NCBI GenBank assembly: GCA_963705355.1 | Contig: OY970070.1 | Span: forward strand, 1,906,960-1,970,959 | DNA: 64,000 nucleotides | Reading direction: 5' to 3' | Source of the DNA: an uncultured Thermoplasmata archaeon | GTDB taxonomy: Archaea > Thermoplasmatota > Thermoplasmata > UBA10834 | In this document: in pieces, positions 532 to 35,928 of the stretch | How positions within the stretch are numbered: position 1 is the stretch's first letter | How the letters are laid out: every line of letters begins with the position of its first letter | The notes under the pieces: generated by a model | Database searches by the model: none | Told to the model about the DNA's origin: nothing | Seen by the model: the letters and a program-made list of their open reading frames with translations, nothing else | Made by a program: the position numbers and the translations under genes

Positions 532-1968
532 TCAGTCCTCATACTTTTCCAAGATGCAGTTAATCTGCTTCTGGGTCTGCTTGTCCACCTGTTCCGGGAT
601 ATGCGACGAAATGATCTTCTTCGCTCTGTCTTTCGCCCTCTCGACCATGTCCTTCCTGGACTTGTCCAGACGATAGAATGCGAGATTGTCAGTCTTGTCC
701 TGACTCTGAATGAAGAGTTCCTTCCTCATGTTCCTCGCGGTGTGCATCTCCTTCAGGAAGCTGCCTCCGGGACCGACCTTCCTCACAAGATCGACTGCGA
801 AATGCTCGTCATCAAAGGCAACATCTCTTCGCAATTCCCGAACGTTTTCCCAGAGGTCGCAATCGATTATGATCTGCTCCAGCGACGCGCCCAACGCCTG
901 ATCGAGCCCGCCGATTCCCGATGCGAAATCTGTCAGAGCCAGAGACGTGAGGCTCGTGAACAAGAGTTCCGCCGGATCGAAATACACTCCTGGCGATTCT
1001 CCGCCGAGCCCGACCCCGAAACCGCCGACCATCGTGGAAGCGCCGTAGTACTTTGCCATCTGTGCGGCCGCGCTCGCGATCAAAGCCTCTTCGACAGCAC
1101 CGTAGTGTATCTCTCCCGTCCTCATGTTCGGCGAGGTCGATTCCGAGCTGTATACGACGGGCGCTCCAGCCTTTGTTATCTGGGATATTGCGAAGCTAGC
1201 GAGATTCTCCGCATTCACGATCGCTATTGTGGAAGCTAGGGTGACGGGAGATGTGAGCCCTGTCAGAGCCATCGACATCGAGACGACTGGTATCCCAGCG
1301 CTCGCGAATTCCATCAGGGCTTCGACCGAGCCCTTCTCGAACTCCAGCGGGCAAATGGGACACTGGACCACCGAGAACAAAGGCCTCTTGGCAAGCGCAT
1401 CCTCTCCGCCGGCGATTGCTGCGGCAACCTCGACTTCCGCTCTCGCCTCCTCCGCAGACATAGCCTCTCCTTGGACATGCTTGGTCGTGTTCAGAAGGGA
1501 AATCGTGAGTTCGCTCAAGGCATGGGTTCTGTCCGGAGCGTCATGCGCAGTAACGATCGGCCAGACATAATCGAGCGGATCCATCGCGTCGCAGAGTACC
1601 ATGAAATCCTTGAGATCCTTGCCCAGCGTGGTGTGCTTCTCCCCGGTCTCGAGATCGGTCATGTAGACGGCGGTGCCGTTCGTCGCCATATATGGTGGTC
1701 CAGTCTTCGGAGCTAGCATGTCTTGTTTCGGATTCCTCGCGCAAAGATTCACGGTCTTCGGAAGCTTTTTCACAGTCTCCTTGACCAAGCTTTCTGGAAT
1801 GCTAGCATGCATGCCCTTTCTGTCTATCTTTGCCCCGCCGCTCTCAAGCATCTTGAGCGCTCTCTCGCTTCGAACCATCACGCCTGGGTTCTCCAATATG
1901 CGCAGCGTCTTTTTGTGAACAAGTTCTATGTCACTCTTCGACAGAATGCTTATCTGGGCTACCGCCAT
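532..1968 (-). CDS. trimethylamine/quaternary-amine methyltransferase MttB-superfamily protein (non-pyrrolysine type)
   Basis: 478 aa. Length and conserved blocks are typical of the MttB family (VVQCPICPLEF..., GGFGVGLGGESPGVYFDP). The ORF is uninterrupted, with no in-frame TAG. Confidence 0.7.
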   Translation of the reverse strand: MAVAQISILSKSDIELVHKKTLRILENPGVMVRSERALKMLESGGAKIDRKGMHASIPESLVKETVKKLPKTVNLCARNPKQDMLAPKTGPPYMATNGTAVYMTDLETGEKHTTLGKDLKDFMVLCDAMDPLDYVWPIVTAHDAPDRTHALSELTISLLNTTKHVQGEAMSAEEARAEVEVAAAIAGGEDALAKRPLFSVVQCPICPLEFEKGSVEALMEFASAGIPVVSMSMALTGLTSPVTLASTIAIVNAENLASFAISQITKAGAPVVYSSESTSPNMRTGEIHYGAVEEALIASAAAQMAKYYGASTMVGGFGVGLGGESPGVYFDPAELLFTSLTSLALTDFASGIGGLDQALGASLEQIIIDCDLWENVRELRRDVAFDDEHFAVDLVRKVGPGGSFLKEMHTARNMRKELFIQSQDKTDNLAFYRLDKSRKDMVERAKDRAKKIISSHIPEQVDKQTQKQINCILEKYED

Positions 1969-2023
1969 TCTCCCGCTCCGAGAACCGAGATTGAGAGTGA
2001 GGTAATTAATCCATTGGCCCCCA

Positions 2024-3304
2024 GTGGATGACTATCTCAACGATCTCTTCGGACCAAGTGGACAAATGGTGTTCGAGACTCTCAGGGCATATCCCAGGGC
2101 TTTCAAGGTGCTCGTGGCGAGCGCACTGATCGAGAACATGGCTTTTGGCCTCATAATTCCGTATTTGACGATTTATATGACTGCTGATATCAAAATCTCG
2201 GATGCGGCCGCGGGTGTCGTGCTAATGGGCTATACTCTTTCGGGCATACCCGCTGCGATATTCGGCGGCATGCTCGCCGACAAGATCGGAAGGAGGACCG
2301 TCCTTCTCATCAGCCTGGGTTTGATGGCGATCACGATATTCATGTATTGGTTCGCCTTCGATTTCGTCTCCTTGCTCGCGATCGCCCTTGCGGACTCCTT
2401 TGTTGGCTCGCTTTACATGCCCGCTGCGAACGCGATGATAGCTGATGTGATTCCGTCGGAGAAGAGGCCTCAAGCCTACAGCACGCAGAGGATCGCTTGG
2501 AATGTCGGCTTGATATTCGGCCCCGCGGCGGGTGCAGCCATCGTCGCAAGCAGCTCCATACAGCATCTGTTCGCATTCGGCTCCGTGATCCTTGCGGTGG
2601 CCTTCACGATGAACTTCTTCTTCATCCCGGAGACAAAGCCAGACAAGACCGGTGAAGAGGTGACCTTCAGGAAAGTGGCTGAGGTCCGTAAGAACAGGCC
2701 GTTCCTCCTCCTGTGCGCGATGAGCGGCATATTTTGGTTCGGTTCGACCCAGTTCATGTCTGCATTCCCAGTGTACGTCACCAGGGAACTCGCTCTTCCC
2801 AATACTGACCCTGGGGTTCTGTGGGCGATAAATGGTGCGATGATCGTCCTGCTCCAGCTCTGGGTCACATCGAAGGCTGTGAAGCTCAGAAGATCCGTCG
2901 TCCTAACGGCCGGACAAATCGTTAGTTCGGTCGGATTGGGCCTACTGTTCTTCGCAGCCGGTCTACCTGAGTTGATCGCGTTCATCGTCGTCATGACAAT
3001 AGGTGAACTCATCTACATGTCAATCCTCTCTGCGGTCATCGCTGACATGTCGCCTGAGGACAAGCGCGGCATCTACATGGGCTTCGCTGGATTCATGCAG
3101 ACCCTCGGCATGGGCGCGGGCATGCTCGTCGGCATGTGGCTCCTGGGGGCCCTCGCATCCCAGAGCGCCTATCTCTGGGCGTTCTTTGGAGTCGTGGGCG
3201 TATCGACGAGCCTCGCATACTTGGTCTTCGGCCGGATGGTCGGACCTGAGAAGGATCATCCATCGAAGTTCGGAGTCCCCGCTCCTTCAATGCAGTTGCA
3301 CTGA
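2024..3304 (+). CDS. MFS transporter
   Basis: 426 aa with about 12 predicted TM helices. An MFS signature lies between TM2 and TM3 (GMLADKIGRR). Confidence 0.8.
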   Translation: MDDYLNDLFGPSGQMVFETLRAYPRAFKVLVASALIENMAFGLIIPYLTIYMTADIKISDAAAGVVLMGYTLSGIPAAIFGGMLADKIGRRTVLLISLGLMAITIFMYWFAFDFVSLLAIALADSFVGSLYMPAANAMIADVIPSEKRPQAYSTQRIAWNVGLIFGPAAGAAIVASSSIQHLFAFGSVILAVAFTMNFFFIPETKPDKTGEEVTFRKVAEVRKNRPFLLLCAMSGIFWFGSTQFMSAFPVYVTRELALPNTDPGVLWAINGAMIVLLQLWVTSKAVKLRRSVVLTAGQIVSSVGLGLLFFAAGLPELIAFIVVMTIGELIYMSILSAVIADMSPEDKRGIYMGFAGFMQTLGMGAGMLVGMWLLGALASQSAYLWAFFGVVGVSTSLAYLVFGRMVGPEKDHPSKFGVPAPSMQLH

Positions 3305-3384
3305 GAACAAGAGAAATCCAAAAGGTGAAGGGGTTTTCCAGCCCATCCTCTTGGGATGAACTGATTCAGCAATGCGAAGCGATC

Positions 3385-3942
3385 CTAGAATCGTCTTCGG
3401 CCCTTGTTCATGTAGCTGGGCCTGTCGCTGCTATCTCTGTCTCCGCCTCTGTCGCCATAGCCGCCGCGCCTCTCGCGACCGCCACCATAGCCACCGCGGC
3501 TTCCGCCTCCGCCGAAGCTCCTGCGCTCCTGTTCGTACTCCTTGTCGCTCATGTTCAGCGCGGTGCTTGAGCCGTCAAGCGGCTTCTCGCTCTTTGTGAG
3601 CTGGCCGTACTTGCCGACGTTCAGGCGCATGTGTCCCCTGACCAGCGAGACGTAACCGTTCTTGATCGCCATCACATCGTCCTTGACAATGCTTCCGATC
3701 TGGTTGTCCCACAGGGAGAGGATGATCGCACCCGTCTCGTCCGCTACAGTCGCCTCTGCGACCTTTCTGGAGTTCCCGAACTTTCCGGGGATGTCCTTTG
3801 GCTCGCTGACCTCAAGGCACTTGGCCAATACGTCCACTCTCTTCGATTGTGGCGTGAGGTCCTTTATCTTCGTCTCTACGCTTGCTTGCTCTTCCGAGCT
3901 TTGTCCAACGCTCTCTTCCATGTCTATTCTTCCTTTGTGCAC
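3385..3942 (-). CDS. OB-fold ssDNA-binding (SSB/RPA-like) protein with C-terminal RGG/Gly-rich tail
   Basis: OB-fold core resembling euryarchaeal SSBs (KFGNSRKVAEATVADETGAIILSLWDNQ...). The tail is Gly/Arg-rich (GGGGSRGGYGGGRERRGGYGDRGGDRD). The start is probably Met8 (3921). Confidence 0.55.
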   Translation of the reverse strand: MHKGRIDMEESVGQSSEEQASVETKIKDLTPQSKRVDVLAKCLEVSEPKDIPGKFGNSRKVAEATVADETGAIILSLWDNQIGSIVKDDVMAIKNGYVSLVRGHMRLNVGKYGQLTKSEKPLDGSSTALNMSDKEYEQERRSFGGGGSRGGYGGGRERRGGYGDRGGDRDSSDRPSYMNKGRRRF

Positions 3943-4336
3943 AATTGTCTCCGGCTAGCACGCGAGTCAAACTATCGGCTTCAAAACATCAGCGATGTTC
4001 GGCTTGTCGTATCACTCGGCACAACTAGTGCTGGTTTAACGACTGTGCATGACACTATTAATAATCTTGCCCGATACTAGGCCAACGTGCGGCCGTCATT
4101 GTGCCGATTTGCGCAATCCCAGCTTCAGTCAGCGCGTTCAACTAGACGGCTCTGCTCTGAGAAACAGCTATATATACTCCTGTGCGTACGGCGTTACCTG
4201 TTTGAGGAGCATAGCGCCGTTGAGACCTGCAAGGACACTCCGCACGGAGGTCTGCTCCCCGCCGGAGCAGTGGGTTCATGATGCTCGCGATCGATTCACG
4301 GAAGGGACTTTGAGGACCGCATGTCCCTGAGGGGGG

Positions 4337-6337
4337 ATGCACATGGTTGACGACGGTGTAGGCCGGGCTATTTACCCTGGTGCGGCACCCTCTCCCGCCC
4401 CCCCTACCGAGTTCTCGCCAAAACCTGAACGGCATGAGGGCGGGATCGCAGCCGAAATCGCTGCTCTTGGGATAGAAAATCTGCGCGTTGCGGTTGCTTC
4501 CGGCGAGCGGCTCCTGTACTCACGCGACCAATCTGAGATCCCGCGCTTCCTCAGAGAGATCATGTTCAACTCGGTCCCCGAGGCAGTTGTTCTGGCGAAA
4601 TCGGCTGAGGCGGTCTCGGCCGTTGTTCGATTCGCCTCTTCGAATGGCATCACTGTCATACCCAGAGGTTCAGGCTCGTCGCCCTTCGGCGGTTCGGTCC
4701 CTGTCTCCGGAGGCATCGTGATCGATGTCTCGGGCATGGACAGGATCATCAACATCGATGTTCCAGGCAAGACGGCGAGTGTCGAGGCGGGAGCGAGATG
4801 GGCAGACCTGGATCATGAGCTGGAGAAGCACGGCCTATGCCTGAACACGAGTCCGTCGAGCAAGTTCTCGACCGTCGCGGGATGGGTCGCGACGGGCGGG
4901 ATGGGATTGAACAGCTTCTCGAAGGGTCATCTGAGTTCGAGTGTTCTGTCGGTCGATGTCGTGACTCCAGACGGGCTGAAGAGGACGGTCCAGAGCGGCG
5001 ACCCGATGTTCCCCGCGATCTTCGGAAGTGAAGGGCAGCTCGGGGTGATCACGGCAGTGACTCTTGGCGTCCGCAAGATCCCGAAGAGATTCAAGCCGCA
5101 TTTGATATTCTTCAAAGACCCGAAGAGCGCCTTGAACTTCACACGCTCTCTGGCAGAGAGTGGAGTCCACCCTGCTCACATCTTGTACGAGAGCGCCGCG
5201 AAGTTCTCTCTCATCAACAGGATGCTAGGCCAGAGCCGCTTCAGCGCCGCTGACGCCATCATCGTGAGCATCGAGGGCGAGGAGTCGGAGCAGCTTTACC
5301 AGAGCTTCACGAAGGCCGCGGGTCTCAAGGAGGAGAAGGAGTACCTCGCGCGGTACATGTGGAACGAGAGGTACTTCCCCATGAAGGTTCGCAAGTTCGG
5401 ACCGGGGATGCTTGGATCCGAGGTTATGGTGCCTCAGAGACTTCTTCCAGATGTTCTCACGAAGGCTGCCGACCTGTGCCAAGAGCTCGGGCTCGAGCCC
5501 CTCTTTGAGATACACTTCACCAATGAAGGCCATGGTCTGCTCCTGTGTTACTACGTGACGGACCAGGGCAACACGATAGGCTACACCCTGGACGCGCTCA
5601 AGTCCATGCTTCTCACATCGATGCTGATTGAGAGCGGCGCAAAGCCATACTCTGTCGGCATTTGGAACCATCCGTTCTCGAACGCCGAAGAGCGACCACG
5701 CGTCGATCGCCTGCGACAAGCGAAGGCTACAATGGATCCAAAGGGCGTCATGAACTCTGGAAAGTACTTCTCGCTCTCTGGAAGATTCGGCGGACTCGCC
5801 GCGATGGCCTTCAATCCCAGATTGATGAGGCCAGTGCTGAAGACGATGCGGGTCTTCTCCCCGATCACCATGCGATTCATGCGGATGGGATATGGTTTCG
5901 CTGCCAGGAGGCTGAAGCCGAAGTCAAGGAGCGAACTTCTTCGGATTGCAGACGAGTGCGCCATGTGCGGAGCTTGTGTGAGCGTCTGCCCGGCTTACCT
6001 CGTCGTGGGCGATGAGAGGGTCACCGGAAGAGGGAAGCTGTTGACTGTCAAGGCGATGGCGCGCGGCGCCAAGATATCGAAGGAGCACTCGGACAGGATC
6101 TTCCTGTGCATGAAGTGCAAGGCGTGCGAGCAGGTCTGTCAATCGAAGCTCGAGCTCGTCAAAGCCTACGAAGCACTTGAGAAGGAACTTGAGCAGATTC
6201 ACGGCAAGGACGCTCAGGAGATCGAGAAGTTCATCCGGTACGTGGAGAACACCTCCGAGTACGATGAGCTTGTCGAGCGCGGTCTCGTAATAGGTGCTCC
6301 GAAGCACGGGATGGGAGGTGGTGCGGCTGACGTTTGA
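4337..6337 (+). CDS. FAD-binding (PCMH/GlcD-type) oxidoreductase fused to C-terminal 2x[4Fe-4S] ferredoxin-like domain (D-lactate/glycolate dehydrogenase-like)
   Basis: FAD_binding_4 motifs (VIPRGSGSSPFGGSV, GSEGQLGVIT). Two C-terminal Cys clusters (CAMCGACVSVCP and CMKCKACEQVCQ). Confidence 0.8.
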   Translation: MHMVDDGVGRAIYPGAAPSPAPPTEFSPKPERHEGGIAAEIAALGIENLRVAVASGERLLYSRDQSEIPRFLREIMFNSVPEAVVLAKSAEAVSAVVRFASSNGITVIPRGSGSSPFGGSVPVSGGIVIDVSGMDRIINIDVPGKTASVEAGARWADLDHELEKHGLCLNTSPSSKFSTVAGWVATGGMGLNSFSKGHLSSSVLSVDVVTPDGLKRTVQSGDPMFPAIFGSEGQLGVITAVTLGVRKIPKRFKPHLIFFKDPKSALNFTRSLAESGVHPAHILYESAAKFSLINRMLGQSRFSAADAIIVSIEGEESEQLYQSFTKAAGLKEEKEYLARYMWNERYFPMKVRKFGPGMLGSEVMVPQRLLPDVLTKAADLCQELGLEPLFEIHFTNEGHGLLLCYYVTDQGNTIGYTLDALKSMLLTSMLIESGAKPYSVGIWNHPFSNAEERPRVDRLRQAKATMDPKGVMNSGKYFSLSGRFGGLAAMAFNPRLMRPVLKTMRVFSPITMRFMRMGYGFAARRLKPKSRSELLRIADECAMCGACVSVCPAYLVVGDERVTGRGKLLTVKAMARGAKISKEHSDRIFLCMKCKACEQVCQSKLELVKAYEALEKELEQIHGKDAQEIEKFIRYVENTSEYDELVERGLVIGAPKHGMGGGAADV

Positions 6338-7718
6338 GCGATACCACATACCCCTCAATACGGTTCAGGGAAGAGCGACACCAGTCCCGAAGTTCGTGAT
6401 AACGCGCACGGATAACTGCATCAACTGCGGCAAGTGCGAGAAGGCCTGCATCTATGGCGTGCACAAGAGGAGCGAGCAAGACCTGCGCAAGATGGCCGAC
6501 CCCATCAATCAGCTCTGCAAGAACTGCTTCAGATGCATAGAGGATTGCCCTCAGAGATCATTGTCAATGGCCCCTGGCACGGAATACAAGTCCTTGGGGC
6601 GCGGGACCTGGACCCCGCTGAGGATAACGACGATCTGGGGCGAGGCGGAGACAGGCAAGATTCCCGTTCTTGGCGCTGGCTACCGCGGCATGTTCGCTGG
6701 ACCTGGCTACGACGGCATGTGGACGGACATGTCCGAGATAGTCAGGCCCACGCGTGACGGTATCCACGGCAGAGAATTCATCTCAACGAGCGTCGACATC
6801 GGCAGAAAGCCCGCTTGGCTTGAGTTCGGGAAGAACGGCAATGTCCTCACCGAGATCCCGCCTATCATCGAGTTGCCCATACCTGTGATAGTGGACGTAA
6901 CGAGGCTGAGGTCGGTGAGCGATGATATGATGACTGGCTTCGCCCGCGCGGCAAAGCATCTGAACACTCTCATCCTGGCCTCTCCGGGTTCTCCGCTTTC
7001 TCAGGCGTCCGCGGAGCTCAACAGCCATTACGTCCCGGTGTTCCCGGAAGGCGCGGATGTTCGCACCATCGAGATACCCAAAGGGGTCCAGATGGTCGAA
7101 CTGCAATACGGATCTGGATGGAGAGGGGACGCGAATCTGTTCAGGTCGAGGTTTCCCGGTGTTGTCCTCTCCTTCAGGATGGAGTCCGGCAGAGGCATCG
7201 AGCAAAAGATCCTCGAGCTTGTCCAGGCCAAGGTCGACGCCGCCCATGTCCTCTATGACGAGGAGAGCGCGGAGCTCGACAGGAACGATTTCAGGCACGC
7301 TAAGGACAGCCTGCGTGCTATCCACAGAGCGCTGGTCGCAAGGGCGATTCGCGACCAGATCACTCTAATCGCTGGAGGAGGGATCGCCGCTGCGGAGCAT
7401 GTTCCGAAGAGCATCATCTGCGGTGCGGACATCGTCGCGCTCGAGAAGGCGCTGGTCATAGCGCTCGAGTGCAGAGATTGTATCAGTTGCTCGAAGGGCT
7501 CGTGCCCCATAAACCTGCACAGCGCGCCCCTAGATTGGGTCGAAGGGCGCGTGACCAACATGATTGGCGCTTGGAGAGACCAGCTTCTCGAGGTTCTCGG
7601 AGCCATGGGCCTCAGGGAAGTCCGAAGGCTGAGGGGAGAGTTTGGCAGGGCGATCTTCTATGAGGACGTCGAGCGAGAAGCGTTCTCGGAGATAGAAGGA
7701 GGCGAGACGAATGGCTGA
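6294..7718 (+). CDS. glutamate synthase large-subunit domain-2 (FMN) paralog with N-terminal 4Fe-4S ferredoxin domain
   Basis: N-terminal CINCGKCEKAC...CKNCFRCIEDCP. The C-terminus is a TIM-barrel like GltB domain 2 (IAGGGIAAAEHVPKSIICGADIVALEKA...CRDCISCSKGSCP) but lacks the canonical GGTGA block. It overlaps the next gene, suggesting an operon. Confidence 0.65.
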   Translation: MLRSTGWEVVRLTFERYHIPLNTVQGRATPVPKFVITRTDNCINCGKCEKACIYGVHKRSEQDLRKMADPINQLCKNCFRCIEDCPQRSLSMAPGTEYKSLGRGTWTPLRITTIWGEAETGKIPVLGAGYRGMFAGPGYDGMWTDMSEIVRPTRDGIHGREFISTSVDIGRKPAWLEFGKNGNVLTEIPPIIELPIPVIVDVTRLRSVSDDMMTGFARAAKHLNTLILASPGSPLSQASAELNSHYVPVFPEGADVRTIEIPKGVQMVELQYGSGWRGDANLFRSRFPGVVLSFRMESGRGIEQKILELVQAKVDAAHVLYDEESAELDRNDFRHAKDSLRAIHRALVARAIRDQITLIAGGGIAAAEHVPKSIICGADIVALEKALVIALECRDCISCSKGSCPINLHSAPLDWVEGRVTNMIGAWRDQLLEVLGAMGLREVRRLRGEFGRAIFYEDVEREAFSEIEGGETNG

Positions 7719-9222: not shown

Positions 9223-11852
9223 CCGAAGATACCAAGGCCTTGCTCGAATCACGGGAATGGATGACCTCGTTGAGGACCAACACATCGGCCCACTCTCAAG
9301 AGGCTGAGGGCGGCTGCGGTGTTGTCGGGATAGCCAGTTCCGTCCCTCTCGCGGGGAAGCACATCCTCGGTCCGCTGGTGCAGATGCACAACAGAGGGAA
9401 CGGGAAGGGCGGAGGCATCGCAGCGGTCGGCCTCTCACCAGAGCAGATGGGCGTGCCGAAGAGGGTTCTTGAAGAGGACTACCTTGTCCAGGTCGCCTAT
9501 CTCAAGCCTGCGATACGCGAAGCCCTTGAGGAGGAGTTCATCAAGCCGAACTACAGGATAGAGAGGAAGTACAAGGTCGAGATTAGCACCGACAAGGCGC
9601 TCATTTCATCACTGGAAATCACTCCGCCTGAAGTCTGGAGGTACTTCTGCAGGGCGAAGAAGGAGGCTCTCGACAACTTCGTCAGGAGGCATAAGCTCGA
9701 AAGGCTCGAGCCGCGCAAGGCGGAGGACGAGCTCGTCTATCAGACAAGCTTCAGCATCAACAAGAAGTACTACGCGACATCCGACATGTCCGCCTTCGTC
9801 ATGTCCCACGGAAGGAACATGATTGTGATGAAGATCGTCGGATATGCCGAGGACGTCATCAGGTACTACAAGCTCGAGGATTTGAAAGCGTATGTGTGGA
9901 TCGGGCACCAGAGATACCCGACCAAGGGAAGGGTCTGGCATCCTGGAGGGGCGCACCCGTTCGTGGGCCTTGACGAGGCCCTTGTGCACAACGGCGACTT
10001 CGCCAACTACTACTCAGTTTCCGAGTACCTCGCGCAGAGAAACGTCGTCCCCCTGTTCCTCACGGACACGGAGGTCTCGGTCCTCCTATTCGATGTCCTG
10101 AACAGGGCATACGGCTACCCGCTCGAGTACATCATAGAAGCTTTTGCCCCGACGACCGAGCGCGACTTCACGCTGCTGCCGGAGGAGAAGCAGAAGGTCT
10201 ACAGGGCGATCCAGGCGACGCACATCCATGGTTCCCCAGACGGCCCGTGGTTCTTCATAATCGGCAGGAACTGTTTCTACGAGAACAAGTTCCAGCTGAT
10301 GGGCATCACGGACACATCGATGTTGAGACCACAGGTCTTCGCCCTGGTCGATGGTGGCATTCAGCTCGGCCTCATCGCATCTGAGAAACAGGCGATCGAT
10401 GCCGCTCTCAAGAGCGTCTCCTCAGAATTCCCGTCCGTGCCTGGATATGCCGACATGTACTGGAACGCGAGAGGCGGCAGCCACACGGACGGCGGAGCGT
10501 TCATCTTCAGCCTGTACCCCGAGAAGGGCACTGCGGATGGCATGCGGCTCATATGCACGAACAAGTTCGGAACGCCGGTCACGAGCCCGTCGATGGATTG
10601 GAGCAGGGAGGACGACCTAGCGCTCGCCGAGCCGTTGCCAAGCAGGCCAAAGGTGAGCGACCTGGCGAAGGAGCTGATGGCGAAGAAGAACCCAAGAAGC
10701 GCGCTGGATCTCCTCGTCAGCAAGTTCGGTGAGCTCTCGGGCTCGGAACTCAACGACATCTTCTCCTTCATCGTCCAGCACGCAGCGAAGAGTGATTCGA
10801 CCATGGACGACGGCGTCGAGCTGCTCACCGCGATCATAGACCGCAGGTACTCGTCCGGCAAGTTCAGGCGGAGCAGGATCAACAGGAAGGCGAACGAGGC
10901 TGTCGAGAAGATCCTGAGATCGGCCAGGAGGATCGAGAAGAGCGGCCACTCACTCTATTCTCTAATCGACCTCAAGAACATGGAGAAGCTCGGTGAAGCT
11001 ATCTCGCCATACGACAAGCTCGTCATTGACTGCGCTGGTTTCCCCATGGAAGGCGATGGCGGAGTCTCCTTCGCGATCAAGAGGGCAAGGGACCTCGGAT
11101 GGAACCGCGTGGTCGTCGTCGGCGTTCACGGGCAGAGATTCATCGGTGCTGGTCTCGGGCCGAGGACCAGAGGATTCAAAGTAGATGTGTTTGGCAGCCC
11201 AGGCGATTATCTCGGTTCAGGACTGGACGGAGCAGAGGTCGTCGTTCATGCGAACGGACAGGACCAGCTGGGACAGATTCTCAGCGAGGGCAAGCTGGTC
11301 GTCCACGGGGACGTCGGACAGACTTTCCTGTACGGCGCGAAAGGCGGCGAGGCATACGTTCTCGGCAACGCCGCTGGCAGGCCTTTGATCAACGCTGTCG
11401 GAAAGCCCAAGGTCGTGATAAACGGAACATGCCTCGATTACCTGGCAGAATCGTTCATGGCGGGCAACCCGCTCTACGGCGGAGGGTTCGTCGTCCTGAA
11501 CGGAATGACATTCGATGGCAGAGGAAAGCCGATGGATCTCCCGGCTCCATATCCGGGCGGCAATTTGTTCTCGCTTGCCTCTGGAGGCGCTATCTATGTT
11601 CGAGACCCGAAGAAGCTGGTCGGGGAGGAACAATTGAACGGCGGCAGGATCTCCAGACTTACGAGAGCCGATTGGAACCTGATCCTGCCGCACCTGGAAG
11701 AGAACGAGCGACTCTTCGGAATCTCGGTTGAGGATTTCCTGCTGAAGGTCGACGGCGCGAGCAGACCGCCAGAAGAGATCTACAGGAAGATCGAGGCAGT
11801 GCCGCTGGTCACTCTTGCAGGCACAGCTCAGATGCAGGAGACAGGCGACTAG
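9219..11852 (+). CDS. gltB: glutamate synthase subunit: class-II glutamine amidotransferase domain fused to GXGXG (GltB domain 3) domain
   Basis: N-terminal catalytic Cys in GCGVVGI (Ntn-type GATase II). The C-terminus carries GXGXG repeats (VVVVGVHGQRFIGAGLGPR..., VVHGDVGQTFLYGAKGGEAYVLGNAAGRPL). 4-nt overlap with the upstream gene. Confidence 0.85.
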   Translation: MTEDTKALLESREWMTSLRTNTSAHSQEAEGGCGVVGIASSVPLAGKHILGPLVQMHNRGNGKGGGIAAVGLSPEQMGVPKRVLEEDYLVQVAYLKPAIREALEEEFIKPNYRIERKYKVEISTDKALISSLEITPPEVWRYFCRAKKEALDNFVRRHKLERLEPRKAEDELVYQTSFSINKKYYATSDMSAFVMSHGRNMIVMKIVGYAEDVIRYYKLEDLKAYVWIGHQRYPTKGRVWHPGGAHPFVGLDEALVHNGDFANYYSVSEYLAQRNVVPLFLTDTEVSVLLFDVLNRAYGYPLEYIIEAFAPTTERDFTLLPEEKQKVYRAIQATHIHGSPDGPWFFIIGRNCFYENKFQLMGITDTSMLRPQVFALVDGGIQLGLIASEKQAIDAALKSVSSEFPSVPGYADMYWNARGGSHTDGGAFIFSLYPEKGTADGMRLICTNKFGTPVTSPSMDWSREDDLALAEPLPSRPKVSDLAKELMAKKNPRSALDLLVSKFGELSGSELNDIFSFIVQHAAKSDSTMDDGVELLTAIIDRRYSSGKFRRSRINRKANEAVEKILRSARRIEKSGHSLYSLIDLKNMEKLGEAISPYDKLVIDCAGFPMEGDGGVSFAIKRARDLGWNRVVVVGVHGQRFIGAGLGPRTRGFKVDVFGSPGDYLGSGLDGAEVVVHANGQDQLGQILSEGKLVVHGDVGQTFLYGAKGGEAYVLGNAAGRPLINAVGKPKVVINGTCLDYLAESFMAGNPLYGGGFVVLNGMTFDGRGKPMDLPAPYPGGNLFSLASGGAIYVRDPKKLVGEEQLNGGRISRLTRADWNLILPHLEENERLFGISVEDFLLKVDGASRPPEEIYRKIEAVPLVTLAGTAQMQETGD

Positions 11853-12086
11853 CGCGACAATTGTGCCTATTCAAATCGGCTCATTTCCAAACGGCATCGG
11901 CGTTTTTAGAAATGTTTCCGAAATCGAACCTGAAACGTCCCTCTCCATCGGAAGAAACTGCTCCAGACAACTGTGTTCGCGGCAAGCTTAAATACGGACG
12001 TTTTAATCACGCGACCGATAGACATCACGGCCTCGTTCCAAGCCCTCGGGCCGCGCTTCCTGGCCGAGGGCGGGAAGAGTGTTCAA

Positions 12087-12914
12087 ATGTACGAGATAGT
12101 GAAGTCGGAGAAGCTCACTCCGGATGTCATAAGACTGGAGATACGCGCGCCTCAAATCGCGAAGAAGGCGAAAGCGGGACAGTTCGTCATGGTGACACCG
12201 ACTGAGCACGGGGAAAGGATCCCGCTCACCATGGCGGACTTCTCACCGGACGATGGAACGGTCACGATAGCAGCGCTGGAGGTCGGCAAGACCACCAAGG
12301 AGCTCGGCAAGATGAAGGCCGGGGACAAGGTCTTCAGCCTGGTCGGCCCGCTCGGACTCCCGACTCACCTGAAGCAATATGGGAACGTCGTCAGCATCGG
12401 CGGCGGCATAGGCCTCGCTCTGATGTACCCGGTCGTGCGCGCTTTCAAACAGTCCGGCAACCACACAATCAACATCGTCGGCGCAAGGAACGAGAAGCTG
12501 CTGATGTACGAGAAGGAGATCCAGTCCGTCAGCAACGAATTCTTCGTCTGCACCGACGACGGCTCCAAGGGCCACCATGGGTTCGTGAGCGACATCCTGA
12601 AGAAGCTGATTGCCGAGAACAAGAAGATCGACCTCGTCTACGCTGTCGGTCCGATCATCATGATGAAGGTCATCGCTAACATAACGAAGCCATACAACAT
12701 CCCGACAGTCGTCAGCCTCAACCCGATCATGGTCGACGGGACCGGCATGTGCGGCTCGTGCAGGGTGATCATCGCGGGCGAGACCAAGTTCGGCTGCGTA
12801 GACGGGCCCGAGTTCGATGGCCACAAGGTCGACTTCGACAACCTCACGGCCAGGAACAAGAGGTACATCCCCGAGGAGCAGATCTCGCTGAGGAGATTCC
12901 AGGAGACGAAGTAG
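12087..12914 (+). CDS. NfnA/SudB-like ferredoxin-NAD(P)+ reductase small subunit (PyrK-type FAD/[2Fe-2S])
   Basis: PyrK/SudB blocks (RIPLTMADF, GPLGLP, VSIGGGIGLALMYPV). C-terminal CGSCRV...GCVDGPEFDG. The ORF opens at 11973, but Met at 12087 fits the family length. Confidence 0.8.
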   Translation: MYEIVKSEKLTPDVIRLEIRAPQIAKKAKAGQFVMVTPTEHGERIPLTMADFSPDDGTVTIAALEVGKTTKELGKMKAGDKVFSLVGPLGLPTHLKQYGNVVSIGGGIGLALMYPVVRAFKQSGNHTINIVGARNEKLLMYEKEIQSVSNEFFVCTDDGSKGHHGFVSDILKKLIAENKKIDLVYAVGPIIMMKVIANITKPYNIPTVVSLNPIMVDGTGMCGSCRVIIAGETKFGCVDGPEFDGHKVDFDNLTARNKRYIPEEQISLRRFQETK

Positions 12915-14384
12915 ATGGCCGAGGAAGAGAAGAAGCCCAAGAAACTCGTCCCCAAGAAGTACCCGATGCCCGAGCAGGACCCGAAGGAGCGCGTGCACAA
13001 CTTCAACGAGGTGCCGCTTGGTCAGGACGCTCAGGTGGCGATAGCAGAGGCGCAAAGGTGCCTCCAATGCAAGCGCGGGCCGAACAGGAAGGTCTGCATG
13101 GACGGCTGCCCGGTCGAGATCGACATCCCGGTCTTCATCAAAAGGGTCCAAGAGGGGAACTTCGAAGAAGCCATAAGGATCATCAGAGAGAAGCAGAACT
13201 TGCCAGCGGTCTGCGGCAGGGTTTGCCCGTACGAGAACCAGTGCGAGGGCGTCTGCATCGTCGGCAAGAAGAACGAGCCCGTCGGGATCGGCAGGCTTGA
13301 GAGATACCTTGCGGACTGGGAGAGGAAGCAGGGCAAGACGGGCAAGATCGAGGTTCCTCCGCCGACAGGGAAGAAGATCGCAGTTGTGGGCGGCGGTCCA
13401 GCGGGTCTCACGGTCGCGGGCGACCTCGCCAGACTGGGCCACAAGGTGACCATCTTCGAGGCGCTGCAGTACTGCGGCGGCGTGCTGATCTACGGCATCC
13501 CAGAGTTCAGGCTTCCGAAGGAGATCGTGAGAGCAGAGGTCGACTACATCAGGAGGATGGGAGTCGAGATTTTCAACGACTTCGTCGTCGGCAAGCTCGA
13601 GACCGTCGATGAGATGCTGGAGGACTACGACGTTGTCTTCGTGGGAACCGGCGCTGGTCTTCCCGACTGGACCGGCCTTCAGGGGGAGAACCTGAACGGC
13701 ATCATGTCCGCCAACGAGTTCCTGACAAGGGTCAATCTGATGAAGGGCTACAAGTTCCCGGAGTACGACACCCCAATACGCGTGGGCGAGCGCGTGGTCA
13801 CCATCGGCGGAGGCAACGTCGCAATGGACTGCGCGAGGACTTCGCTCAGGCTGGGCTGCAAGGAATCGGTCATCCTCTACAGGAGATCGGACGCAGAGCT
13901 GCCGGCCAGACGCGAGGAGATACACCACGCCAAGGAGGAGGGCGTCAGGTTCGAGCTGCTCGCAGCTCCGCTCGAGTTCATCGGAGACGAGTGCGGCAAC
14001 GTGAAGCAGGTCAAGGCCATCCGCATGCAGCTCGGTGAGCCGGACGCGTCGGGAAGGAAGAGGCCGATCAAGATCCCCGGCTCGGAGTTCCTGATCGATG
14101 CTCAGACAGTCCTGATCGCCATTGGCCAGAGCCCGAATCCGCTGGTCCCGATGACAACGCCCGACCTCAAGACGACCAAGGAGGGCACGATAGCTGTCGA
14201 CCCCGAGGGCAGGACCTCGAAGAAAGGAGTTTTCGCAGGCGGAGACATAGCGTCAGGCGCTGCGACCGTCATCCTTGCAATGGGGGACGGAAAGCGCGCC
14301 GCGAAGGCCATGCACAAGTACCTCACTGAGGACCCGTCTTGGCCGTCACCCGAAGTGTTCGAGAAGCTATCTTGCGAGATCTAG
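12915..14384 (+). CDS. NfnB/SudA/GltD-like NADPH-dependent oxidoreductase (glutamate synthase small-subunit family)
   Basis: N-terminal Cys clusters (CLQCKRGPNRKVCMDGCPVEIDIP, CGRVCPYENQCEGVC). Two dinucleotide folds (KIAVVGGGPAGLTVAGDL, VVTIGGGNVAMDCART). Starts 1 nt after the nfnA stop. Confidence 0.85.
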   Translation: MAEEEKKPKKLVPKKYPMPEQDPKERVHNFNEVPLGQDAQVAIAEAQRCLQCKRGPNRKVCMDGCPVEIDIPVFIKRVQEGNFEEAIRIIREKQNLPAVCGRVCPYENQCEGVCIVGKKNEPVGIGRLERYLADWERKQGKTGKIEVPPPTGKKIAVVGGGPAGLTVAGDLARLGHKVTIFEALQYCGGVLIYGIPEFRLPKEIVRAEVDYIRRMGVEIFNDFVVGKLETVDEMLEDYDVVFVGTGAGLPDWTGLQGENLNGIMSANEFLTRVNLMKGYKFPEYDTPIRVGERVVTIGGGNVAMDCARTSLRLGCKESVILYRRSDAELPARREEIHHAKEEGVRFELLAAPLEFIGDECGNVKQVKAIRMQLGEPDASGRKRPIKIPGSEFLIDAQTVLIAIGQSPNPLVPMTTPDLKTTKEGTIAVDPEGRTSKKGVFAGGDIASGAATVILAMGDGKRAAKAMHKYLTEDPSWPSPEVFEKLSCEI

Positions 14385-17195: not shown

Positions 17196-18296
17196 CTAGC
17201 CTGCAGTCTTGCCCAGTATCCTGCGGCATAGCTCCAGCTGCCTCGACACGGTCGGATGCTTCTCCTCATTAACGAACTTAACCTTCACATTCTCACCCAT
17301 GTAGTCGGAGCTGCTCTTGCCTCCCCACTCTCCGTACACCAGTATCTCCTCGTTGTCAAGCGAGACCAATCCGAAAGTGACCGCGAGGTCGTAGATCAGG
17401 TCTGAGGTCTTCCACGGGTCTATCCTCGCATGTTCGGGGACGGCGAATGGCAGCTCTAGCTGCATGGTCATGAGCTCGCTGGTTCTGGCGTGATTCACCA
17501 TGTCCTCGTCTGCTGTGAGCAGGAACACGTCGTAGTCTCCGCCCCTCGCCCAGTACTTGTACGACTGCGCGATCTCAATGTCGTTCCTCTCCTTGCCCTT
17601 GGCCGCAGTTCCCTTGACCCTCAGCGCTCTGAGATCCGTGAGCAGATAGTTCATCTCGTTGAAGGCCAGCTTCGCGATCCTTGTGCGTCTTCCGCTTCCG
17701 TTCGAGAACTCCTTCAGCAGCTCGGGATGCGCAAGGACCTGCCCCAGAGCTTGGATCTCATCTCTGGAGTACTTGTGTGTGATCTTCGAATCGAGCTCCA
17801 TCTGGACGACCTCGCTCAGAACATATCTGAAATCCGTCGCCTCGATTGTTCGCCCGGAGAAATCATCCTTCAGTGGCAGGTGCCTGGATAGGAATCGGTC
17901 GTAGAGGATGTTCGTGTCCACCGCGACGAACACTGGTCGTGGCCGCTTGTTCGGATCCCTCGCCTCGTCCCTTAGCTCGATGAGCTTCTTGGTGATCTCT
18001 GTTTCGTTCTTGTAGTTGAGGAAACCGGAGGAGAGCAGACAGTTCCTGAGATCCGTATAGCTCGGCAGCTCGTCCGCGCTCACAGCTCTGTCAAGTGGCT
18101 TCTTGGTCGTCCTCATCCAGTCAAATGCGTCCGGCCTCACTATCTTCGTGAGCTCTGGTTTTTCGATATCCAGCGTGAAAAGCTCGACTTCATAGAACGG
18201 ATACGAGACATGGACATACCTCTTGTCTCCGCGGTAGATTGCGTTGGTGAGTATCTGGAGCTCGTTCCTGGACATCACGAGCTCCTTCACTTCCAC
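17196..18296 (-). CDS. PIN-domain protein with uncharacterised N- and C-terminal extensions
   Basis: Central PIN acidic residues (VFVAVDTNILYD, SEVVQMELD, LLTADEDMV). The roughly 120-aa N-terminus and 80-aa C-terminus are unassigned. 10-nt overlap with the upstream CARF-like gene. Confidence 0.6.
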   Translation of the reverse strand: MEVKELVMSRNELQILTNAIYRGDKRYVHVSYPFYEVELFTLDIEKPELTKIVRPDAFDWMRTTKKPLDRAVSADELPSYTDLRNCLLSSGFLNYKNETEITKKLIELRDEARDPNKRPRPVFVAVDTNILYDRFLSRHLPLKDDFSGRTIEATDFRYVLSEVVQMELDSKITHKYSRDEIQALGQVLAHPELLKEFSNGSGRRTRIAKLAFNEMNYLLTDLRALRVKGTAAKGKERNDIEIAQSYKYWARGGDYDVFLLTADEDMVNHARTSELMTMQLELPFAVPEHARIDPWKTSDLIYDLAVTFGLVSLDNEEILVYGEWGGKSSSDYMGENVKVKFVNEEKHPTVSRQLELCRRILGKTAG

Positions 18297-18793
18297 ACCT
18301 CCTCTTTGAGGTCCACGAAGTGCTGGAGATGGAAGGGTATCATCGGGTAGGGGTTGGTGGCGTTCCTCATGTCCTCGAGGTAGAGATAGTAGACGTGGTC
18401 CACCTGCTTCTGCCAGGCGGAAAGAAGTGCCGACGAGATAATGGCCTTCCTTCCTGGCGTGATGTCTATCGCCACCTCGTTCCCCGCAGCTCTCTCCTCC
18501 TCCATGACTGCCGTGATCTTCTTCCCCGACGACGTGAAGTCGCCCTCGTCTATCGTCCTAAGCACAGGCTCGATCCTCTTGCCGTAGGATTCCGTCAGGG
18601 TCCTTATCCATTCTGAGAGAGCGCGAGCATCATTTTCCCTGCCAAGTGTGACGAAAAGATAGATCTTGTCAGGCAGGTAGCCCTTGCAGCAGATCGCCGC
18701 CCAGAGGCTGTTGAGAACAGGCCACTTGCTGATGCCTGTCATCGTGATGTAGATCTTCTGAGCCATTCCCGTCAAGATAACGGCTATGTCCAT
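18287..18793 (-). CDS. minimal CARF-like Rossmann-fold domain protein (putative ligand sensor)
   Basis: Starts at Met56 of the 223-aa ORF (MDIAVILTGMA...). The N-terminal strand plus TG resembles CARF (hhhhS-hG). Signature EVAIDITPGRKAI resembles Csm6/Csx1 IDhTGGTK. The upstream 55 codons are low-complexity and unlikely to be coding. Confidence 0.45.
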   Translation of the reverse strand: MDIAVILTGMAQKIYITMTGISKWPVLNSLWAAICCKGYLPDKIYLFVTLGRENDARALSEWIRTLTESYGKRIEPVLRTIDEGDFTSSGKKITAVMEEERAAGNEVAIDITPGRKAIISSALLSAWQKQVDHVYYLYLEDMRNATNPYPMIPFHLQHFVDLKEEVWK

Positions 18794-19313
18794 GATAAAA
18801 TCCTTGCCGACAATAAGGGCCGCGGAGACGATTGGCGTCTTTCTGCGTGATTGTTGAGTCGAGGATTGGTGTCGAAACCTTTCTTCCAGAGCGCCGGAGC
18901 TCGGCTTTGTTTCCGCCAGAAGGTTCCGGAATCTCGAATCGAGAATCGACCACTGCACAACTTTGGTCGTTCAACGTTTGTGTTGCTTGCGGATAGGCCC
19001 ATAGAACACTACAAATAGATGCATGCTATTTCTTGACTCGGGGGTGAAAGCCTGAGGAGAATTTGGATAGTCGTAGCCGGAGTGCTAGCATTGGGGGTAA
19101 CTGTCGCACTCGCTGTTGTCGGTGTCGCTCCTGACGGAGGACACACATGGTTGCATGCAATCCATACTGCAGTGAGCTCTGTTGCCGACAAGGTTAGCGC
19201 AACTGGCGGCCACACATGGCTCACCTGAGTGTGAAAACCGAAATGGGCGACGTTTCAGTAGACGTCCCCATCCTAAACCAATAATCTTGCCAGGTTCGAC
19301 GGGAGAGTGTTAC

Positions 19314-20615
19314 TCAGCATCCTGCGAGAGTGGCCTCTGCCTTCCTGGCAAGGGCAACGTTGCCTATCTCTCTGTAGACGACGGAAGACTTCTTCAGTAG
19401 CTTCTTTGCCAACTTGGGATCGATTGCCGATTTCAATAGTGCCATTCCGTATTCGTAACAGCAAGCTGCGAAAGTATCCTCCACGCCAGAGGATCTCGCA
19501 GCTCTTACGCTCTTCTCAAACCATTCGAACCCCATCTGCAAGTTCGAGTTGTGGAATTCTACATACCCGTAGTTCCTGTAAGCAAGGGCAAGCATGTTCA
19601 GGTTGTTTGGTTCTTTGAAAACCGTAACCGCCTCGTCGGTGTATCTCAGTGAAGTGTCAATATCCCCAGCGCGTGCGCAGCAGTACCCAGCGTTCACAAG
19701 CGCAGCACCCAGAACCTCCATATTCCTGGTTGTCCTGCATGCAGAGATGGTCTTCTCGAAATACTCGGCAGCGTCTGTGAATCTCTCCCTCGACATGTTC
19801 AACACGCCGAGGTTGTTTGATATCCTGCACGAGTATTGCATATCCCCAATCTCAAGGAAATACTTCAAGCAGTTCTTGCTTGCATTCTCCGATTCTTCGG
19901 TTCTGCCCTCCAGGTCGTAGATGATTGCTAGGTTACCAAGAGCTTTTGCCTCTGCGTGTTTGTCTCCGATGGCCTTTGCCATAGATAGGCTGCTTTCGAA
20001 GCATCGGATTGCCGAAGCGTGGTCTCCCTTGTTGCCATACACGATTCCCATAGCTCCGTTCGTGAGACATACGCCTCTCCGGTCGCCCGCTTCCATGTAT
20101 TTCTCGATCGCGTTCAGGTATGACTCCAGTGCCTCATCCCAGCGGTTCTGCGCGACCTCTACTCTGCCCTGATAGAACAATGCGAATGCGAAGCTCTCGA
20201 CATCCTTTGTCCTCTCTGCAAGTCTCTTCAGCTCAAAACAGTTGAGCAATGCGCTATCCCAGTTGCTCGTATCACACTGTAGCGCCACGAGTTTCTTCAG
20301 GGCTTCCTTCCTCGTTCCATTGGATCCTCCATCGACGTCTCTTAAGGCGGCGACGTGTTCCTGAAGACTCCTATCAAGAGCCTTGATCTCTGGATGATTA
20401 GCAACAATTCCTCTGCCTTCCTTCGTCAGCGAGTAGCTTTCCTCATAATCCGCAAGGCCACCGTGGCCGATCCAACCTAGATCCTGCAAGCCCCTGAGCG
20501 CAGTCACACGGGCTTCTTTGGGAACTCCGTCAAGGCCGGATTTGATCAGCAATTGCCTGTTGTTCTCGCCGAGAACATAGAAGATGAGACTCTCTATCTC
20601 GTTTCTAGTGGCCAT
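19314..20615 (-). CDS. TPR-repeat protein
   Basis: 433 aa. Multiple TPR-like repeats (AxxxYxxAIxxY..., GNLAIIYDLEGRTEES). Confidence 0.7.
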   Translation of the reverse strand: MATRNEIESLIFYVLGENNRQLLIKSGLDGVPKEARVTALRGLQDLGWIGHGGLADYEESYSLTKEGRGIVANHPEIKALDRSLQEHVAALRDVDGGSNGTRKEALKKLVALQCDTSNWDSALLNCFELKRLAERTKDVESFAFALFYQGRVEVAQNRWDEALESYLNAIEKYMEAGDRRGVCLTNGAMGIVYGNKGDHASAIRCFESSLSMAKAIGDKHAEAKALGNLAIIYDLEGRTEESENASKNCLKYFLEIGDMQYSCRISNNLGVLNMSRERFTDAAEYFEKTISACRTTRNMEVLGAALVNAGYCCARAGDIDTSLRYTDEAVTVFKEPNNLNMLALAYRNYGYVEFHNSNLQMGFEWFEKSVRAARSSGVEDTFAACCYEYGMALLKSAIDPKLAKKLLKKSSVVYREIGNVALARKAEATLAGC

Positions 20616-35112: not shown

Positions 35113-35928
35113 TTAATAATGTTTGCCAGGCACGTGGTCCCGTTTGCGGTCGTCGAAGAATGTGCCTGGTAGGAGCATGACGCCTTCGGGTGGCTCTATC
35201 CCTTCGACGAACCCGAACCAGTACACGACGGCTCCCGTGCCGAACATCTCCGTGTAGGGCTTCAGCTGCCTGCGAACATTCTTGCGCAGCTCTATGTCGT
35301 CCCCGAACGAGGCCTTCGACTCGATCCAATGAATCTTCATCCCATCGATCTGGATTGGCTTGTCCAGGAGGCAGTCCGGAGTTTTCTTGTGGGTGTTCCT
35401 GAGGTCGATCTCGGTCCTGTACTTCAGCTGTCTCGCGTCCAACCAGTCTTGGAGCTTCTTCTCACCCCAGACGCCTCTCTCGGTCTGGATCTGAGCCCCT
35501 CTGGGGGAGTAGATCATGTCCTCCTCGGCGATCTGTATTAGCTCCTTTCTTAAACGCCTGTCATGGCACGAGTCCGGGTCTCTGATGTACTTCCAGAACT
35601 GCTTCCTGGGGAGCCCGATTTCCGAGCCCAACATAAGCCCGAGGAGCACCGGAGGGAAGTTGATCATCCTGGCAATCTTGGCCATCGAGGTGTCTCTTCG
35701 CCATTCTCTCGCGATCTTCTTGATGTCCTTCTTGACGATGTAGAACCTTCGCGTCGCATCCCTGACGGTCCTTTGAGTGTAGAGGACCAGGAGGAATTCG
35801 CGGTCCACGCCTAGCTTCTGCGCGAGATGATCTATGTCAGAGGGTTTCTTCAGCTGAGAATATATGTTCTTGTAGTCTTCGTACTTCATCAGTTCACAGT
35901 CCAGCAAGCTGCTGAACGAAATGTTCAA
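35113..35928 (-). CDS. TPD-motif / CDIN1 (C15orf41)-like putative PD-(D/E)XK nuclease with N-terminal helical (HTH-like) region
   Basis: KKTPDCLLD...IQIDG...HWIESKAS matches the D...D...ExK arrangement and the Pfam 'TPD' motif family. It lies 3 nt upstream of the Cas4-like gene. Confidence 0.45.
   Translation of the reverse strand: MNISFSSLLDCELMKYEDYKNIYSQLKKPSDIDHLAQKLGVDREFLLVLYTQRTVRDATRRFYIVKKDIKKIAREWRRDTSMAKIARMINFPPVLLGLMLGSEIGLPRKQFWKYIRDPDSCHDRRLRKELIQIAEEDMIYSPRGAQIQTERGVWGEKKLQDWLDARQLKYRTEIDLRNTHKKTPDCLLDKPIQIDGMKIHWIESKASFGDDIELRKNVRRQLKPYTEMFGTGAVVYWFGFVEGIEPPEGVMLLPGTFFDDRKRDHVPGKHY

Follow-up and report, generated by a model that had tools for sequence, protein, structure and literature searches.

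A probable two-gene form of the Crf6/CARF_m1 CARF–PIN family in a fixed chromosomal position of a Thermoplasmata lineage

Two adjacent minus-strand genes in a 64-kb stretch of the genome of an uncultured Thermoplasmata archaeon (contig OY970070.1; this whole stretch of 64,000 nucleotides is hereafter called the window) encode what we predict to be a small CARF protein and a larger, multi-domain PIN nuclease. We consider it probable that this pair is the two-gene, or split, form of the Crf6 (legacy name CARF_m1) family of CARF+PIN proteins, and that it works as a ligand-gated RNase. We found no established function for Crf6 in the literature. Taken alone, the locus reveals no new kind of system, the pair being a real and largely ordinary member of a poorly characterised family. 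What it adds is that members of the family normally have split genes, that in one archaeal clade the pair stays at a constant place in the chromosome and is subject to strong purifying selection, and that the gene model can be corrected and provided with a conserved promoter.

Family, fold and conserved sites of the two proteins

The initial annotation described a module of a 169-aa CARF-like sensor and a 366-aa PIN-domain protein, and the list of open reading frames (ORFs) bears out both minus-strand frames. Its CARF call for the smaller protein holds: this protein matches the PADLOC profile CARF_m1--CARF (PDLC01971; E 1e-31) over the full profile (positions 2–153 of 156), as well as positions 2–150 of the 465-position profile of the fused family, CARF_m1--CARF_PIN (PDLC01973; E 1.1e-29). 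The larger protein matches positions 222–455 of the same fused profile (E 6.4e-27). As the two proteins thereby fall on complementary parts of one profile, together they map to Crf6/CARF_m1. Assignment to a Rossmann family other than CARF, which the initial annotation had regarded as fatal to its proposal, did not occur in the profile searches. With NCBIfam, the CARF protein gave weak matches to Csa3-type CARF models; the Crn1 model scored 11.5 bits against a cut-off of 125, and no ring-nuclease model of NCBIfam reached its cut-off.

In the AlphaFold model of the CARF protein (predicted local distance difference test [pLDDT], 85.4), the chain adopts a Rossmann-like α/β fold with a parallel core sheet, as expected of the CARF superfamily. 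Strand 1 comprises residues 4–10 (KIYITMT) and is followed by G11, and in the loop associated with it T8, T10, G11, and S13 are invariant across 39 CARF homologues. Equally invariant are A99, T103, G105, R106, and A108 of AIDITPGRKA, the signature (AIDITPGRKAI) that the initial annotation had picked out near the C-terminus. Both ligand-pocket loops of the superfamily are kept. A profile alignment with Sso2081 places S13 on Ser11, R106/K107 on R105/K106, and DITPGRK on DITGGRK, and the best PDB match of the CARF profile is SiRe_0806 (E 3.8e-5), whose DITPGRK motif is identical. Judged from its sequence, the small protein is a true CARF domain; by analogy with SiRe_0806 in complex with cyclic tetra-adenylate (cA4; PDB 9jxx), it would form a homodimer that binds cyclic oligoadenylate (cOA) on its two-fold axis.

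The assignment of the larger protein—a PIN nuclease at its centre with a D-T-N, E, D-E-D pattern, flanked by further domains—stands as well. Its AlphaFold model (pLDDT 94.4; predicted template modelling score, pTM, 0.92) consists of four segments: an N-terminal α/β domain, a helical linker, the PIN core, and a C-terminal α/β domain. D127-T128-N129, E167, D239, and D263 (in TADEDM) show little or no variation across 32 sequences, down to 22% identity, and R206 and G326 are invariant in the same set; each of the acidic residues sits at a strand end or a helix start in the model, as a PIN site would have it. The protein thus combines a PIN fold with the four conserved acidic residues of a PIN nuclease. 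In Foldseek, 9jxw and 9jxx, both of them structures of SiRe_0806, were matched with probability 1.00, and VapC toxins were among the further fold matches; an exact-protein look-up returned nothing on record for the window protein. From sequence and model, the partner is predicted to be a PIN nuclease whose acidic tetrad is complete and whose core has additional domains on both its N- and C-terminal sides.

The VapC matches, together with a small upstream gene that overlaps the PIN gene by a few nucleotides—the usual VapBC layout—, bring up a toxin–antitoxin-like pair, in which the upstream protein would neutralise a PIN toxin as VapB does VapC and ligand sensing would be irrelevant. We regard this as highly improbable: the upstream protein is a CARF that conserves its pocket residues and lacks a DNA-binding fold, the PIN protein has several domains and 364 aa as opposed to the ~130 aa of VapC, and natural CARF–PIN fusions exist. 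Moreover, the pair is single-copy, syntenic, and slowly evolving in the Thermoplasmata lineage, and PADLOC made no toxin–antitoxin or VapBC assignment.

The split pair, its gene models, and its promoter

A split CARF–PIN arrangement had initially been considered unusual, yet within this family it is the rule. When 1.84 billion cluster representatives (50% identity) were searched exhaustively with phmmer, 237 relatives of the PIN protein were found; nearly all of the best 150 are 330–375 aa long and align end to end, and 144 of these 150 are unfused. The other six carry extra N-terminal sequence (P0289, P0295, P0316, P0348, P0362, and, as a partial sequence, P0379). These extensions are CARF domains and share the motifs of the window CARF (YITMLGRSAWP..., DITPGRKA, and PYPMIP); a short linker connects them to the position that corresponds to residue 3 of the window PIN protein, and CARF and PIN follow the same order as the separate genes. 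Two of the fused homologues (P0316 and P0289) lie on contigs of ~2.4 kb, whose gene context is uninformative. PADLOC, too, already holds standalone-CARF profiles for the Crf6/CARF_m1 clade. While Crf6 as described unites CARF and PIN in one polypeptide and the window has two ORFs, split genes are the usual state of the clade.

The pair also recurs beyond the window. A scan of the GTDB species representatives with the CARF alignment yielded 36 loci, mostly from Thermoplasmata, with others from Methanomassiliicoccales, one Methanosarcinaceae metagenome-assembled genome (MAG), and one Methanoregula MAG; a third homology search, with a diverse alignment, returned the same close cluster only. A PIN homologue directly follows the CARF gene on the same strand in every genome or metagenome locus in which DNA beyond the CARF gene is present (34 of 34), an adjacency that holds down to 34% (CARF) and 27% (PIN) identity. 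PIN relatives at 22–25% identity have an upstream CARF as well: at 25% identity, the upstream gene encodes 160 aa, overlaps by 4 nt, and aligns to the CARF alignment with an hhalign probability of 99.4%, and at 23% identity a CARF-like C-terminal fragment lies upstream. Genomes with the pair include the complete genomes CP070739 and CP070751 and a MAG that contains JBASRQ010000169. Because CARF and PIN genes lie side by side wherever this was checked and natural fusions exist, the pair appears to act as one unit, for which being split is normal.

This linkage bears on a further explanation, according to which the CARF protein would be an independent ring nuclease or nucleotide sponge and the PIN protein functionally separate. 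The equivalents of S11 and K106 of Sso2081 (S13 and K107) are conserved, haloarchaeal homologues carry the RefSeq name "CRISPR-associated ring nuclease", and Crf6 bears an "r" (ring nuclease) flag. However, adjacency in every checked locus, the coupled translation that the gene junction suggests, and the natural fusions argue that CARF and PIN work as one unit, and the Crn1 score is far from its cut-off. Since ring-nuclease activity would also be compatible with a ligand-gated RNase and need not replace it, functional separation of the two proteins strikes us as scarcely probable.

As for the start of the CARF gene, the initial annotation took the peptide MDIAVILTGMA, read from ATG 18793, for the N-terminal strand plus Gly. 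This peptide lies outside the conserved protein. Most of 134 CARF homologues are 159 aa long, starting at the Met of MAQK(I/V)YITMTG, and the PADLOC family profile begins at the same methionine, here ATG 18766. We compared the 70 nt 5′ of the CARF start in 25 related loci with those of the window. All have a TATA-like element, (t/a)atatatca(c/t), ~30–38 nt 5′ of the ATG, and the compared loci share a second block, (c)gattac / ccgttatc, as well as GGAG/GGGA immediately 5′ of the ATG. ATG 18793 falls inside the TATA-proximal element, where related loci read ATCACC or ATCATC, not ATG. By this comparison, MDIAVILTG is promoter or leader DNA and not strand 1. Because homologue starts, profile start, and conserved promoter agree, we assign the CARF gene to 18287..18766 (Table 1). 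The initial annotation had named a start elsewhere, with loss of the N-terminal strand, as a reason to give up its call; the start does lie elsewhere and the MDIAVILTG strand is lost, but the true strand 1 and its Gly (KIYITMTG, residues 4–11) remain and the CARF assignment is unaffected.

The CARF and PIN ORFs lie in different frames and, with the CARF stop codon at 18287–18289, overlap by 10 nt, as initially described; at the level of the genes, however, the overlap is likely only 4 nt. PIN homologues are mostly ~364 aa long and align from residue 3 of the 366-aa ORF. The start region reads aaAGAGGAGGTgtggaaGTGAagg, in which the Shine-Dalgarno-like GAGGAGGT precedes GTG 18290 and this GTG overlaps the CARF stop codon as GTGA. 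Given homologue lengths, Shine-Dalgarno-like site, and GTGA overlap, GTG 18290 is the most likely start of the PIN gene. Overlaps of 1–4 nt between CARF and PIN genes recur in related loci, and the junction suggests that the two genes are translationally coupled. The base composition of the region is unremarkable.

Table 1 Coordinates of the CARF–PIN pair, its signals, and further features of the window.
Feature	Position	Strand	Details
CARF gene, longest ORF	18287..18958	minus	From ORF calling
CARF gene, corrected	18287..18766	minus	159 aa, MAQKIYITMTG...EEVWK; predicted standalone sensor subunit of the Crf6/CARF_m1 clade
CARF motif I, T8-M-T-G-I-S13	18728..18745	minus	Loop after strand 1
CARF motif II, D101-I-T-P-G-R-K107	18446..18466	minus	Loop after strand 4
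PIN ORF as listed	17196..18296	minus	366 aa from GTG 18296
PIN effector gene, likely	17196..18290	minus	364 aa from GTG 18290
PIN catalytic core	17427..17939	minus	Residues ~120–290 (366-aa numbering); D127, E167, D239, D263
Gene junction	18287..18305	minus	Shine-Dalgarno-like AGAGGAGGT (18297–18305), then GTG 18290/CARF stop as GTGA; sequence inspection
Conserved promoter upstream of CARF gene	18776..18801	minus	TATA-like ATTTTAT at 18795–18801; second block CCGTTATC at 18776–18783
Uncalled 58-codon gene	19052..19228	plus	Between TPR and CARF genes, divergent from CARF gene
71-aa ORF, rejected	19009..19224	minus	Stop codons in homologues
TPR protein gene	19314..20615	minus	433 aa; upstream of CARF gene, same strand
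Cas4-like PD-(D/E)XK nuclease gene	34093..35109	minus	338 aa; standalone; C-terminal CxxCx5C cluster
TPD-motif protein gene	35113..35928	minus	Adjoins Cas4-like gene
825-aa ORF	48472..50949	minus	Homing-endonuclease-like match in C-terminal 300 residues

Genomic setting and inheritance

The statement that no CRISPR-Cas lies near the pair holds for the 64-kb window. No CRISPR array was found there (TRF; no 16-mers repeated at 45–110 nt spacing), Rfam returned two tRNAs only, cas10, csm, or cmr genes were not seen, and when the 121 window ORFs were run against PADLOC, neither Cas10 nor a cyclase was among the 25 families listed of the 35 that matched. Ten distant loci gave a similar picture, with no Cas10, Csm, or Cmr among the 25 listed of 129 matching PADLOC families (91 ORFs) and none from Pfam on the largest ORFs of these loci. 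The distance from cas genes, which the initial annotation took to be unusual, is characteristic of the family: Crf6 is described as typically not CRISPR-associated (2025 CRISPR-Cas classification), and the window and the related loci conform to this description.

These searches bear on whether the pair could be a type III CRISPR ancillary effector acting in trans, with a Cas10 elsewhere in the genome making cA4 and the pair serving as an abortive-infection RNase. The CARF pocket residues match those of cA4-binding and cA4-cleaving CARFs, the closest solved relative, SiRe_0806, was crystallised with cA4, and PIN RNases are listed among the cOA-activated effectors. Yet, no array and no cas10, csm, or cmr gene was seen within 64 kb, no such gene was seen beside the pair in the ten distant loci or in the annotated contexts, and the family at large is typically not linked to CRISPR. 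In addition, the pair keeps one syntenic position with low nonsynonymous divergence (dN) across the whole clade; CRISPR-Cas loci are usually patchy in their distribution. Overall, we find the trans-effector explanation unlikely.

Gene order around the pair is kept down to ~65% identity, running methyltransferase, (TPR protein), CARF, PIN, glutaredoxin, ferredoxin-thioredoxin-reductase-like (FTR), GAF histidine kinase, and glutamate-synthase genes. In ~25 species-level loci the pair occupies a fixed position, with a methyltransferase or TPR gene on one side and glutaredoxin, FTR-B, and GAF histidine kinase on the other; one of the related loci (L005) is 97–99% identical to the window across the pair, and below ~60% identity the flanks differ. 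A functional link to the glutaredoxin/FTR neighbours was considered and rejected, as that synteny is gone below ~65% identity. Pairwise ratios of nonsynonymous to synonymous substitution rates (dN/dS) are ~0.04–0.16 for the CARF gene and 0.06–0.25 for the PIN gene, among seven neighbouring genes the CARF gene has the lowest or next-lowest dN in each comparison, and purifying selection on the pair is as strong as on glutaredoxin. Relatives in phage genomes were not found by tblastn. In its lineage the pair looks vertically inherited and slowly evolving, unlike a mobile toxin cassette.

The TPR protein upstream of the CARF gene is 54–82% identical in the closer loci but missing from the group at 65–75% identity, and hence no obligate partner. 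In haloarchaea and in the Methanosarcinaceae locus, too, the pair has HEAT or TPR solenoid proteins at its flanks. Between the TPR and CARF genes we observed an uncalled 58-codon gene on the opposite strand. Its product, (L/M)RRIWIVVAGVLALGVTVALAVVGVAPDGGHTWLHAIHTAVSSVADKVSATGGHTWLT, has a single transmembrane helix and, after it, two GGH(T/A)W motifs, and its frame is open in 17 related loci at 44–84% identity; at the start position the window has CTG where some relatives have ATG, and GGGGGTGA precedes it. A 71-aa ORF on the minus strand of the same region was discarded because it contains stop codons in homologues, the real gene being on the plus strand.

More distant relatives live in other surroundings. 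On haloarchaeal megaplasmids, tblastn found ten relatives that are 22–24% identical over the full length. Six of these regions were inspected, and in three (H1, H6, and H9) the upstream CARF is the protein to which RefSeq gives the ring-nuclease name; that of Haloferax aligns to the CARF alignment with an hhalign probability of 99.2%. Neighbours on these plasmids include BREX, methyltransferase-helicase, UvrD/PD-(D/E)XK, VWA, HEAT-repeat, and ADP-ribosylglycohydrolase genes, and restriction-modification genes too. An ADP-ribosylglycohydrolase gene lies beside the pair in four of the six regions (L048–L053), a HEAT-repeat gene in three, and VWA and metallophosphoesterase genes in two each; haloarchaeal islands with the pair and those neighbours may constitute a larger multi-gene system. 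In the Methanosarcinaceae locus (L038), genes for an SbcC-like AAA_27 protein (1260 aa), a metallophosphoesterase (448 aa), and a UvrD-PD-(D/E)XK helicase-nuclease (1014 aa) flank the pair (1735..6850 and 10347..13391), a neighbourhood that looks repair- or defence-type, unlike that of the window.

Within Thermoplasmata, a sister lineage with a 57–58% identical CARF (L042/L043, 8584..9884; L027, 6561..7878) has two genes directly before the pair, one a Csa3-like CARF-MarR/HTH (helix-turn-helix) gene (214 aa) and the other a member of the HFX_2341_N family (217 aa). PADLOC CARF3 strongly matches two ORFs of this locus set (E 4e-86 and 2e-41), most likely those two genes; the cluster comprises three CARF-type genes and the PIN gene, and has no cas genes.

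Such settings pull in two directions on the idea of a domesticated housekeeping switch, whose CARF would sense a CRISPR-independent nucleotide—a stress alarmone or an RNA-derived 2′,3′-cyclic phosphate oligonucleotide—and tune the PIN RNase in RNA turnover or processing. The genomic position fixed in ~25 species-level loci, purifying selection equal to that on glutaredoxin, the lack of matches in phage genomes, and the sister-lineage pair that follows a Csa3-like regulator and an HFX_2341_N gene without cas genes all fit this idea. On the other hand, the megaplasmid relatives beside BREX, restriction-modification, and helicase-nuclease genes are in a typical defence-island context, the Methanosarcinaceae pair is flanked by UvrD-PD-(D/E)XK and SbcCD-like genes, the short-ranged synteny with redox genes implies no functional link, and no candidate for an endogenous ligand was identified. 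We therefore view a housekeeping switch as possible, if doubtful. That the pair of this clade has been domesticated specifically as a core CRISPR-independent switch, with an endogenous messenger from an enzyme new to CARF signalling gating a housekeeping RNase, we consider rather unlikely; if true, CARF second messengers would here be serving a purpose other than immunity. For the Thermoplasmata clade, slow evolution and a conserved place in the chromosome speak for a function that is domesticated or at least stably retained, and for the family the plasmid settings in haloarchaea point to an origin in defence. The Thermoplasmata clade is a reasonable place to seek a non-CRISPR source of CARF ligands.

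Elsewhere in the window, a standalone Cas4-like nuclease (PADLOC Cas4, E 4e-25; Pfam Cas_Cas4 and PDDEXK_1) lies 16 kb from the pair next to a gene for a TPD-motif protein, among housekeeping genes. It is the sole cas-like match in the window among the families listed, with no other cas genes nearby; window matches to Cas1b and Cas1g were rejected, as all of them fall on the Cas4-like protein through the Cas4 part of fusion profiles, and there is no Cas1. The C-terminal 300 residues of an 825-aa ORF match the PADLOC "homing endonuclease" profile (E 1e-37)—the only match among the ten largest window ORFs in PADLOC—, and this ORF could be an intein or a large nuclease. Single-ORF PADLOC matches to mad2, mad3, and mad8 (MADS), pVip-kinase, AriA, and VakA (E 1e-11 to 3e-29) probably reflect generic methyltransferase, kinase, or ATPase domains.

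Proposed mechanism and comparison with known systems

If the pair is indeed a split Crf6-type RNase, the CARF protein would dimerise and dock on the N-terminal domain of the PIN protein, such that the complex mimics the fused enzyme. A small adenine-nucleotide signal—cA4 or a close relative being the best candidate—would bind in the pocket of the CARF dimer and allosterically switch on the PIN ribonuclease, which would cut cellular or invader RNA. The CARF may also degrade its ligand and thereby reset the switch. In the Thermoplasmata clade this module would be a fixed chromosomal gene pair, not a mobile cassette, and the enzyme that makes the signal would be encoded outside the 64-kb window.

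Several points weigh against this reading. Pfam, one of the checks proposed in the initial annotation, left both proteins below threshold: the CARF protein matched Cas_APE2256 under the gathering threshold (E 8e-4), and the PIN protein matched PIN_12 (E 1.6e-4; 22.6 bits, cut-off 32) and PIN_4 (E 0.012; 16.4 bits, cut-off 21.9). Here PADLOC, with its profiles from the CARF census, was decisive, and fold and active-site evidence outweigh the sub-threshold PIN scores. Neither cas10 nor a cyclase gene was seen in the window or beside the pair in the 36 species-representative loci, and any source of cOA in this organism is therefore putative. One distant homologue (L046) is without the TxTGxS loop, which indicates that ligand chemistry may vary within the family. 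The fused CARF-PIN protein ST0035 of S. tokodaii, a relative of SiRe_0806, showed weak cA4 cross-linking and no induced RNase activity (PMC6546367); it is the subject of the only functional report on CARF-PIN proteins that we found in the literature. Finally, the physical interaction of CARF and PIN, the ligand, and the direction of regulation are all inferred.

Among known systems, VapBC shares with the window pair a small partner gene that precedes and overlaps a PIN nuclease gene. Whereas VapBC consists of a DNA-binding antitoxin and a single-domain VapC, the partner here is a predicted ligand-binding CARF, the PIN protein has several domains, fusions of the two exist, and inheritance looks vertical. 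Crn1 ring nucleases (Sso1393, Sso2081, and Sis0811; standalone or HTH-fused CARF proteins) come closer to the sensor: the window CARF is similar in size to Sso2081, and in the alignment the Ser that follows its strand 1 falls on S11 of that protein and the Arg-Lys that follows strand 4 on R105/K106. However, resemblance to Crn1 in sequence is marginal, with E-values from 3e-4 to 1e-2, the NCBIfam Crn1 model stays far below its cut-off, and a PIN gene is no obligate companion of Crn1 proteins.

Among solved structures, the nearest is that of the Sulfolobus islandicus protein SiRe_0806 (PDB 9jxw, apo; 9jxx, with cA4), a fused CARF–PIN protein with which the window CARF shares DITPGRK and on which our literature search found no paper. 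It differs from the window pair in being a single chain of 411 aa, as compared to 159 + 364 aa, and its effector part is only 13–16% identical, with a marginal profile match of the PIN half (E 0.047). CARF–PIN fusions have been recognised since 2014 (PMC4012209), PIN RNases are counted among the cOA-activated effectors, and for Crf6 sensor, effector, and ring-nuclease roles have been identified or predicted. Both window proteins match profiles of the Crf6/CARF_m1 clade (E 1e-31/1e-29 for the CARF and 6e-27 for the PIN part). The differences are that sensor and effector are separate genes in the window, whereas the family name describes a fusion, and that in the window clade the pair is fixed in a housekeeping-like neighbourhood.

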